This document shows positions 8,026 through 49,924 of a stretch of DNA of 64,000 bases, piece by piece. The position numbers and the translations under genes are program-made. This DNA comes from a virus. Lineage: Duplodnaviria; Caudoviricetes. Numbering within the stretch: the stretch's first letter is position 1; each line of letters begins with the position of its first letter. Below the pieces are notes generated by a model. That model worked only from the letters and a program-made list of their open reading frames with translations, did no database searches and had not been told where the DNA came from. The stretch spans positions 57,381-121,380 of IMG/VR virus record IMGVR_UViG_3300037067_003053, one strand, 5' to 3'.

Positions 8026-9079
8026 TTGTTATATCTTAATCGCAATTATTATTAATGATAATGTACTTAATATTGCAAGAATTATACATATCTCTAAAAA
8101 GTTTACCCGAAGATAATAACCTATATCACCAATCAATTCTTTTATATACCAACCAATATTAAAAATAAATTCTTTAATTGGATTTTTTTGTTTCATCTTA
8201 TTCCCCATAACTTTCTTTTATCCATGTAATTATTAACAATCAATTATTTGATATGTTCTAAGTACCGTAAGTGGTAATTTCTTATATCCCAGATATAAAT
8301 TTTTTGTATTCTCATTAAATAATTCCATTGCAGTAATGTGGTCTTTTTCTTTAACTCTACGAACAATTGTTTTTACTTCTAAAGTGGATTCAATTTCAAA
8401 TTTAATAAACGTTCCTACTATAATAAAATCTTCAAATTGATTATTATTTTCCTTCTGAACCAAGTGTCCAAAGTTATTATATTTAAGAAGTTTTTCTCGT
8501 TCGTTTAGAGCCGCATCAATTTCGTCGATTACTGCATCATTATCAAAATCCCGCCTACTTAAACTTCTAAAATCTTTTAGTGTCATCGCATTCATATTCT
8601 TCCTTCCTCCTTCAATCTTATCCATGCTTCACAATCGGCGAGATTACCTTGATAATGAGAAATAAAATGATTATTATCTAATGAATATACTTCATATATA
8701 TTATCCATAAATAATTGAACTTTATATATATTTTTTTTCATCTTATTCTCCATAACTTTCTTTTAATTTTTCTTGTAAAAATTTATCAGATTCAGTATCT
8801 CGTTTTGTTTTGGACATAAAGAAATCTTTTGCGGTCACATTCCTGCGTTTATATTCCCTATAAACATCAAGCACATCCACACCATATCTATTTTTTATAT
8901 CTTCAACTATTTTTGGAACTCGTGCTTTTATTAAATCTGTTATAAATTTAGATATATTTGCTTTATCTCTTTCGTTTCGAGATTCATAAAACATTGAAAT
9001 TGCTTCTAACATTTCACTATAAATAAAATCCTCTTTTTTAAAAGAGAATGTAACTATTTTACCCACATCAGATGACATA

Positions 9080-17057: not shown

Positions 17058-17720
17058 AATTTATCTCAGGGTTAAATCTATAAACATTTTAAATCTATCA
17101 TATTGATGTTTTTTCATATTTTTTATTTTTGTTTGTGCATTTTTAAAAGAAGAAGCCTCAACAAAAATGGTTTCTGTATTTAATCTCCAAACATTATAAT
17201 CAACTTCATGTTCATAAGCATATTGAATATAAAAATATTTTTCACTCATTTTTAATCTCCGGTTCTTATCGCCGTTTTTCAATGGTTTTATTTCTTTTAT
17301 AAAGTCATATAAATTATTAAACTCTTGTAACATTTTTTTTCTGGCCAATAATTCCTGTTCTTTATCCGTTAAATATTGGTCTTGATCCTCTGACATATAC
17401 AACATGTAAAAACAATTTATCCAATCATCTACGGTTTTTATATTTGCTTCTTTATTCCAACCCACAATAAAAAAACAAACCTTTAATTCTAAAGATAAAT
17501 TCTTTTTATTCACCTTAAATTCACGCCATCTAATTGTATATTTCATCTTTTTCTCTATTAGTCATAATATTCTTGACTTTCTTGATTTTGTTTTTCTAAT
17601 AAACAATCATGCCCATCGTCTTTATAGGCATCAATCTTTTCACAGATTGGACAAATTTGAATTATGGAATTTAGTGGTTTTAATTCGTTGATTTCGTGGG
17701 TTAGTTTCATCTCTTCTTTT

Positions 17721-18083
17721 CTAATTTTTGATATTACCATAATTAATTTCCTTCGTTAGTCGCGGCTCTACTCTATGCCAGGATTTTACATATTCATCCG
17801 TGTCTGCATTTATATCACATATTAAATTATCAATATCATCCCTCGGACAATTTGGTAATCCTAAAAACGCACAATCAGCGCAGCCCCATTGATGCGCCAT
17901 ATCCCATTTATATTTAACGCCTTCGATAGTTATTTCTTCTATTTTTCCATCACTTCTTTCAGCCGGTATAACCATAGCGTCCACCTGACGCTGTGAGCTG
18001 TTGATAAATTCAAATAAATCATCATACGATAATCCTTGTTCGCGCCATTTGTCCATATAATCATCAAAGTCTTTTCTTTTCAT
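17721..18083 (-). CDS. Hypothetical Cys-containing protein that starts inside the attC loop
   Basis: ORF with AGGA RBS; CADCAF..C motif. Confidence 0.65.
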   Translation of the reverse strand: MKRKDFDDYMDKWREQGLSYDDLFEFINSSQRQVDAMVIPAERSDGKIEEITIEGVKYKWDMAHQWGCADCAFLGLPNCPRDDIDNLICDINADTDEYVKSWHRVEPRLTKEINYGNIKN

Positions 18084-18128
18084 ATCATTATCCTTTCCAT
18101 TCGCGCAGGTGACGCATCCTCGTTAGGC
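17966..18128 (+). mobile_element. Integron attC recombination site
   Basis: R'' GTATAAC, 5-nt spacer, L'' CGT(C)CACC, TG(A)CGC ... GCGCA, L' GGTGACG, 7-nt spacer, R' GTTAGGC; both extrahelical bases sit in canonical positions. Confidence 0.75.
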
Positions 18129-18156
18129 TTTTTTTAAATCATGTTCCCGCAATCTT

Positions 18157-18219
18157 TCAAGTATTTCCACACATTTGTCTATTAAACTTATCCCATGCTC
18201 TAAATTTAATCTCTCTCAT
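18157..18219 (-). pseudogene. Truncated YopX-family gene stub
   Basis: MREIKFRAWDKFNRQMCGNT* after an AGGAG RBS; MREIKFRAWD is the YopX N-terminal signature. Confidence 0.7.
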
Positions 18220-18540
18220 ATAATCTCCTTTGTTAAAAATCATTGGGGTATCTTGGTAAACTATATTAAGGCTCTGTAGTAATAGTAGCGATATGTGTTG
18301 TCAAATCCATCTTCTTGACTTCCGATACAATTTCCAACCTTAAAAGCATTTATGTCAATCGGGTTATATGCACCATCCCTTGTTTTTACACATAAGTCCC
18401 CAATTTTCGCTCCTGCATATTCTTCTTCTTCATCAATTTCTTCAACAATCCACCAGCCTCTATGTCTACGTCCAATTGTTTCTGGATTAATACCAAATTT
18501 TTCAAATACTTCTTCTTTTGTCATTTTAATTTCTCCTTTG

Positions 18541-49870: not shown

Positions 49871-49917
49871 GTTGCGGAACGAAGTGACGCAACATTGCAG
49901 ACGCGAAGCGTCTGCAA
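49871..49917. other. Paired GAA mini-hairpins (ssDNA-origin-like)
   Basis: GTTGCG-GA-ACGAAGT-GA-CGCAAC and TTGCAGACGC-GAA-GCGTCTGCAA. Confidence 0.7.
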
Positions 49918-49924
49918 ATTGAAA

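Follow-up and report, generated by a model that had tools for sequence, protein, structure and literature searches.

The sequence considered here lies within a 64-kb window, bases 57381-121380 of a 121,380-bp viral contig in IMG/VR (CheckV completeness, 64%); all positions given below are those of the window. The contig has a GC content of 28% overall and about 25% around the segment of interest, carries eight tRNA genes, and has almost all genes of its first 46 kb on the minus strand. Its TerL is 24-29% identical to the terminases of Vibrio and Stenotrophomonas siphophages. Inference of a host from this protein was dropped, given so low an identity.

At the center of the locus is ORF120 (17721-18083, minus strand), an orphan phage gene of 120 codons that is preceded by a good ribosome binding site (RBS; GGAAAGGA) and has also been predicted as a gene in three further assemblies. 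Its GC content (36%) and GC3 (0.31) exceed those of its neighbors (about 25% and 0.1-0.2, respectively). Neither Pfam nor PHROG holds a family to which ORF120 belongs. A word-index search of 5.8 billion clustered proteins returned only ORF120 itself, and HMMER, run exhaustively against 1.8 billion representatives, gave only two spurious matches to repeat proteins. When IMG/VR was scanned with back-translated ORF120 and three neighboring genes, neither a relative of ORF120 nor a close relative of the neighbors appeared, and blastn of the region against phages yielded nothing. Look-alikes of ORF120 in the atlas all score <0.85, and its AlphaFold model (pLDDT 39) is too poor for a fold search. 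Two other contigs that carry ORF120 are 100% identical over 3.4-8.6 kb, with no variation and no rearrangement. ORF120 overlaps the following 60-aa ORF (17558-17740) by 20 nt (17721-17740, minus strand), and the RBS of the latter, GAAGGAAA, sits within the final codons of ORF120.

Upstream of ORF120, the next gene (18261-18524; 87 aa counted from an ATG with an RBS before it) is likewise an orphan. Two patches of elevated GC content, ~17700-18180 and 18240-18480 (33-44%, compared to about 25%), cover ORF120 and this gene, both of which may have been acquired recently; small genes are tightly packed in this part of the contig. Between the two genes, on the minus strand, lies a 20-codon mini-ORF with its own RBS (18157-18219; MREIKFRAWDKFNRQMCGNT, followed by a stop codon). 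Its sole Pfam match is to YopX (profile positions 1-15, E = 0.087), and it is probably what remains of the N-terminal end of a YopX-family gene. No other match to YopX, and hence no remainder of the gene, was seen in the contig. The truncation of a YopX-like gene at this place indicates that some rearrangement has happened at the locus.

Spanning the start of ORF120 is a 163-nt segment that resembles an integron attC site when read on the + strand (17966-18128). It begins with an R''-like heptamer, GTATAAC (17966-17972), which agrees with RYYYAAC at six of seven positions and has the AAC intact; its A at position 3 is also present in the real sites arr-3 and estX. A 5-nt spacer (CATAG) separates this box from the 5' arm, CGT(C)CACCTG(A)CGC (17978-17991, + strand, bulged bases in parentheses), which corresponds to codons 31-36 of ORF120. 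The 3' arm, GCGCAGGTGACG (18103-18114, + strand), falls in the ORF120 leader, 20 nt upstream of the start codon. All 12 of the 12 possible pairs form between the arms, leaving C17981 (or C17982) and A17988 unpaired. The helix thus consists of 3 bp, the bulged C, 6 bp, the bulged A and another 3 bp, with the bulges 9 and 16 nt from the R'' box. Seven nucleotides (CATCCTC) then lead to an R'-like heptamer, GTTAGGC (18122-18128, + strand), which matches GTTRRRY at all seven positions. The 111 nt between the arms (17992-18102), which would constitute the variable terminal structure, hold codons 1-30 of ORF120 with its start codon, the RBS and 19 nt of leader. The start of ORF120 is therefore inside these 111 nt, and its reading frame continues across the 5' arm and the R''-like heptamer.

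The original prediction, made from the letters alone, had described this layout base by base, and direct reading of the + strand bears it out, including the position of the RBS and first ~30 codons of ORF120 within the loop. Its statement that both extrahelical bases are placed as in classical attC sites also holds for most real sites: among 99 distinct real sites, C and A occupy the two top-strand positions in 78 and 75, respectively. A further element of the prediction, a second core-like site at 17755, fares less well. GTTAGTC (17755-17761, + strand), which lies inside codons 108-110 of ORF120, agrees with GTTRRRY at only six of seven positions (the third R is T) and so is not matched by this consensus; true GTTRRRY heptamers occur once per ~1.4 kb on the + strand. 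Being off-consensus and a near match to so common a motif, GTTAGTC carries no weight. It also differs at two positions from the complement of the R'' box. The unit that GTTAGTC and the R'-like GTTAGGC would delimit (17756-18122) ends inside ORF120, 11 codons before its stop. Closing the unit into a circle would leave the ORF120 frame open for another 10 codons beyond the junction, with a stop right before the ORF120 start codon. The GC content of the unit is 39%, compared to 27% in the left flank and 35% in the right.

Covariance models and chance expectation

To compare the candidate with real attC sites, we collected sites from class 1 arrays on plasmids (R100 and five others) and from 80 loci that surround IntI1 or chromosomal relatives with 73-77% identity to it. 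Cassette junctions in the fetched loci show the order R'' box, 5 nt, 3 bp, bulged base, 6 bp, bulged A, apical stem, 5-6 nt and R' box, a canonical layout that the candidate matches on its 5' side. A covariance model built from four seed sites (R1) recovered 121 sites in integron loci, nearly all on the expected strand, and these 121 matches were used to build a second model (R2; our own model, distinct from the attC_4 model of IntegronFinder), which we searched with filters off.

R2 matches 17966-18128 on the + strand over the full span of the model and at exactly these coordinates, with the R''-like heptamer at model positions 1-7, scoring 24.6 bits. The corresponding E-value is 6e-5 in 2 kb and 0.002 in the 64-kb window, and rises to about 0.004 per contig. 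The original prediction had named the lack of a covariance-model hit as grounds for rejection; a model trained on real attC sites does in fact match the segment end to end. R1, the narrower model, misses the candidate even with filters off, probably since 163 nt is longer than it permits for a match. In the R2 alignment, the apical stem is deleted (11 positions on the 5' side and 8 on the 3' side) and 111 nt are inserted. About nine in ten of the 155 R2 matches in integron loci score >30 bits, placing the candidate in the bottom tail. Its score falls in the range of wrong-strand echoes of real sites, which under R2 reach 18-39 bits and mostly 18-27. In one control locus, L006:6118-8230 (plasmid CP083235.1), the attC following blaIMP-26 is interrupted by a group II intron with ltrA on the opposite strand; in the same locus R2 still calls an attC at 8067-8127, immediately before qacEdelta1.

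How often would such a pattern arise by chance? A composition-blind scan for boxes plus geometry found 91 R''/R' box pairs in the contig, of which the candidate is the only one with 12/12 arm pairs; the next best has 9/12. As a control, we generated 300 dinucleotide-shuffled genomes, using both global and 400-nt block shuffles. None of the ~50,000 box pairs in these genomes reached 12/12 and two reached 11, from which we extrapolate ~0.002 per genome. An expectation of 0.002-0.004 per 121 kb amounts to about 0.02-0.03 per Mb. For single attC calls, Cury et al. give a false-positive rate of 0.03-0.07 per Mb, which is why these authors, in developing IntegronFinder, discarded single sites. The pattern is therefore unusual for one genome, yet it occurs at the published false-positive rate of single attC searches.

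The GC-richer patch around ORF120 might be taken as support for a cassette of foreign origin. We rejected this argument, as the island exceeds the unit and as the R2 consensus is GC-rich, such that chance matches are expected in the GC-richest patches of an AT-rich genome. Overlap of the candidate with the island is thus what chance predicts. Rare codons in the arm were likewise set aside as a sign of selection, since the reasoning is circular: a GC-rich match must use GC-rich codons.

Folding of the candidate and of real attC sites

An attC site is expected to be recombined by integron integrase through its folded bottom strand. For each of the 99 real sites, the fold of this strand was predicted using DNA parameters, and z-scores were computed against shuffles. 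All 99 fold as whole-length hairpins. Their minimum free energies range from -0.12 to -0.46 per nt and their z-scores from -0.59 to -13.6 (median, -4.4), compared to -0.08 and -0.54 for the candidate, values worse than those of every real site. Only 16% of the bases of the candidate are in pairs that enclose its center, versus a median of 67% in real sites, which is lower than in 99% of them. The 111-nt interior has no hairpin of its own. With 163 nt, the candidate is also longer than any of the compared sites (55-132 nt), and real sites of at least 95 nt fold well (z-scores of -2.5 to -13.6), with one weak exception.

At the base of the would-be hairpin the comparison is more favorable. On the bottom strand, the L-box helix (3+6 bp) has a predicted probability of 0.34, compared to a median of 0.25 for real sites. 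The 12/12 arm pairs of the candidate are reached by only 27 of the 99, and its 5-nt 5' spacer is shared by 92. The 7-nt 3' spacer is less typical, as the usual length is 5-6 nt and only 5 of the 99 have 7 nt.

Folding of the bottom strand, proposed originally as a check, gives a divided answer: the L-box helix is predicted to form more readily than in the median real site, whereas the z-score and energy of the whole site lie outside or at the edge of the real-site range. The candidate lacks the whole-length palindrome of attC, with its stable apical stem and/or structured variable terminal structure, and it also exceeds the length expected of attC (about 55-140 nt). Given the missing whole-length hairpin, the excess length and the bottom-tail score, the label "canonical" in the original prediction does not stand.

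One R2 match counted among the real sites, L086:4641-4751 (minus strand) in a chromosomal array of Roseateles, folds as poorly as the candidate (z = -0.59, with 6/9 L-box pairs). Either some true attC sites are only weakly structured or a false member entered the training set.

Search for integron components in the contig

The profiles for IntI (TIGR02249) and for tyrosine recombinases (PF00589) had no match anywhere in the 121-kb contig, extending the earlier statement that the window contains no IntI. Neither R2 with filters off nor the geometric scan detected a second attC-like site in the 121 kb, and no attI was found. The next-best R2 scores are 13.4 bits in the window, for a partial match, and at most 9.4 bits in the other 57 kb of the contig. 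The 13.4-bit match (49894-49919, minus strand; E = 0.87) covers the apical-stem part of the model only and corresponds to a short GC-rich hairpin (50% GC) that is not attC-like.

Upstream of the candidate there is no top-strand ORF of more than 35 aa, and hence no gene in cassette orientation. Inverted repeats in the contig include no family of attC-like hairpins, and the gene junctions in the small-gene region are tight, leaving no room for further sites. Rfam searches over the region gave nothing relevant, and scans for promoters and terminators found nothing that would explain the inverted repeat. As a single site, the candidate also falls short of the CALIN definition (at least two sites within 3-4 kb).

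Origin of the attC-like segment

On balance, and with moderate confidence, we favor the view that the candidate is a fortuitous mimic, neither evolved for integron recombination nor left behind by it. The 163 bases comprise the leader and RBS of ORF120, an orphan accessory gene situated in a GC-richer patch, together with its first 39 codons. A GC-rich imperfect inverted repeat of 12-13 bp brackets the ORF120 translation start, with one arm in the leader and the other in codons 31-36, and two loosely defined heptamers (xxxxAAC and GTTxxxx) sit at the right distances. Together, ~40 constrained bases imitate the hairpin base of an attC (an R box, a spacer left unpaired and an L box with two bulges) well enough to pass a covariance model. 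We infer a chance origin for a candidate that stands alone, with no array, no integrase, no cassette and no folded body. Several observations pull the other way. An E-value of ~0.002-0.004 per contig is not large when this genome is judged alone; arm pairing, bulges, 5' spacer and L-box folding are all good; and there is a GC step on the left of the unit and a truncated gene next to it.

Some of these observations feature in a second explanation, that the segment is a real but isolated attC, left when a cassette or cassette-bearing DNA entered the phage and now either a relic or functional. Insertion could have occurred, for example, in a host with an integron, through IntI action at a secondary GTT site, and the attC may since have been partly domesticated through loss of the hairpin body or acquisition of the ORF120 start. 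We regard this scenario as unlikely. It accommodates the full-length covariance match, the canonical bulge positions and the good folding probability of the L box, and precedents have been described, both for isolated cassettes located outside integrons and for phage-borne attC clusters. Less easily reconciled with it are the absence of a hairpin body, unlike in 99/99 real sites, the excessive length and the bottom-tail score. The proposed unit is GC-richer than its left flank, but the right flank is GC-rich too, so the island does not fit the unit. The unit adjoins the stump of the disrupted YopX-like gene, but the resemblance to YopX stops at about 18160-18170, some 40 nt away from the would-be crossover (18122/18123). 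In favor of the scenario, ORF120 remains open across the circle junction. Against it, the left boundary, GTTAGTC, is off-consensus with two mismatches to the complement of R''. Finally, ORF120 is antisense to the site and overlaps it, and in the databases searched no homologue of it was found in a cassette or elsewhere.

The inverted repeat might instead be functional for reasons unrelated to integrons, with the AAC and GTT heptamers present by chance. It could form a long-range helix in the ORF120 mRNA, between the leader and codons 31-36, that tunes translation or stability, or a DNA-binding protein could recognize its two arms. For a genome of 28% GC, a helix of 13 bp that includes 9-10 G:C pairs is a rarity, and CACCTGC and GCAGGTG occur only four times each in the 121 kb. 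On the transcribed strand, the MFE fold and the centroid fold both contain the helix, which brackets the RBS and start codon. It does not, however, sequester either of them, and the fold of the whole segment is no better than that of shuffled sequences (z = -0.04 to -0.6). The repeat belongs to no Rfam family and has no homologues in which covariation could be sought. Moreover, for boxes and bulges to fall by chance into attC register around such an element is less likely than for the whole pattern to arise by chance. We consider a function of this kind improbable.

Two further schemes invoke active exchange of genes. One supposes a working cassette junction in mirror image, in which an attC-type base at the front of the gene, with the start codon inside it, allows accessory genes such as ORF120 to be swapped into the place of a YopX-family gene, using host integron integrase or a recombinase whose gene would lie in the roughly one-third of the genome that is unsequenced. 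This we judge very unlikely. The other, advanced in the original prediction, is that the phage actively shuffles its small genes by means of host integron integrase, with cassettes reversed and ORFs running through the sites. The orientation of ORF120, opposite to the attC top strand and starting inside the site, is as this scheme would have it. Nevertheless, the 121 kb contain a single site by both R2 (filters off) and the geometric scan, the junctions in the small-gene region are tight, and the inverted repeats lack a family of attC-like hairpins. The contig has no attI and no recombinase, the second core is off-consensus, the unit cuts ORF120, and the other readable assemblies are 100% identical across the region, with no rearrangement. 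These data argue against shuffling, which we deem the least probable of the explanations considered.

How does the mimic that we favor compare with established attC sites? Like those of aadA1/aadA2, cmlA1, aacA4 and arr-3, and like the consensus in IntegronFinder-type models, the candidate has R'' (xxxxAAC) and R' (GTTRRRY) boxes, a 5-nt spacer, and 3 bp, a bulge (C on top, G on the bottom), 6 bp and a second bulge (A on top, T on the bottom), and its bottom-strand base is predicted to fold. Unlike them, it has an apical stem of only 3 bp and a 111-nt interior of unstructured coding sequence, and it is accompanied by no cassette-oriented ORF, no neighboring attC or attI and no IntI. Integrase-less clusters of attC sites (CALINs) have been described in phages, including virulent ones, and IntI1 recombined five of six phage sites tested (Qi et al. 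2023, PMC9892861). The candidate resembles these in being an attC-type site in phage DNA that lacks an integrase, but it is single, and a phage CALIN was called only from two or more sites within 3 kb, single hits being unreliable (PMC9892861). Single attC sites in the absence of integron integrase, termed SALINs, have been proposed to derive from cassette insertion at secondary genomic sites, and 3400 were counted in 21,105 genomes (Loot et al., bioRxiv 10.1101/2022.09.11.507474), a frequency not far from that of false positives under the attC model. With SALINs the candidate has in common a lone attC-like site next to a CDS, with neither an att site nor an integrase in the vicinity; it differs in that SALINs are defined by an IntegronFinder call, whereas the candidate was matched by our own model R2, and in that the CDS here is antisense and overlaps the site.

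If real, the candidate would add one more case to a small published set of phage-borne attC sites, and one in which the site overlaps the start of an opposite-strand gene, with a bearing on phage access to the integron cassette pool. Since phage-borne and single attC sites have both been published already, even this favorable reading adds no new kind. The main value of the case is as a caution. Rules for the attC base, involving ~40 constrained bases, can be satisfied by chance at ~0.03 per Mb, and a covariance-model match alone is insufficient to establish a lone attC. It is the stability of the whole-length hairpin that sets the candidate apart from 99/99 real sites.

A mimic that arose by chance could nonetheless be a substrate. 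On the bottom strand of attC, the bulges are G and T, 6 bp apart and 9 and 16 nt from the R box, and the variable terminal structure of class 1 sites spans 3-100 nt (Nivina et al. 2020, PMC7439510). Arbitrary sequence that carries an R box, an unpaired spacer and two bulges 6 bp apart recombines, even inside a gene (PMC7439510). In that study, the synthetic sites combined a variable terminal structure of 3-21 nt with a stable apical stem, whose stability made a difference of up to 12-fold. The candidate is like them in that the site rules are satisfied within a gene, and unlike them in its 3-bp apical stem and 111-nt loop. Because IntI reads structure rather than sequence, the candidate may, as the predicted L-box fold suggests, still serve as a weak IntI1 substrate on single-stranded DNA.
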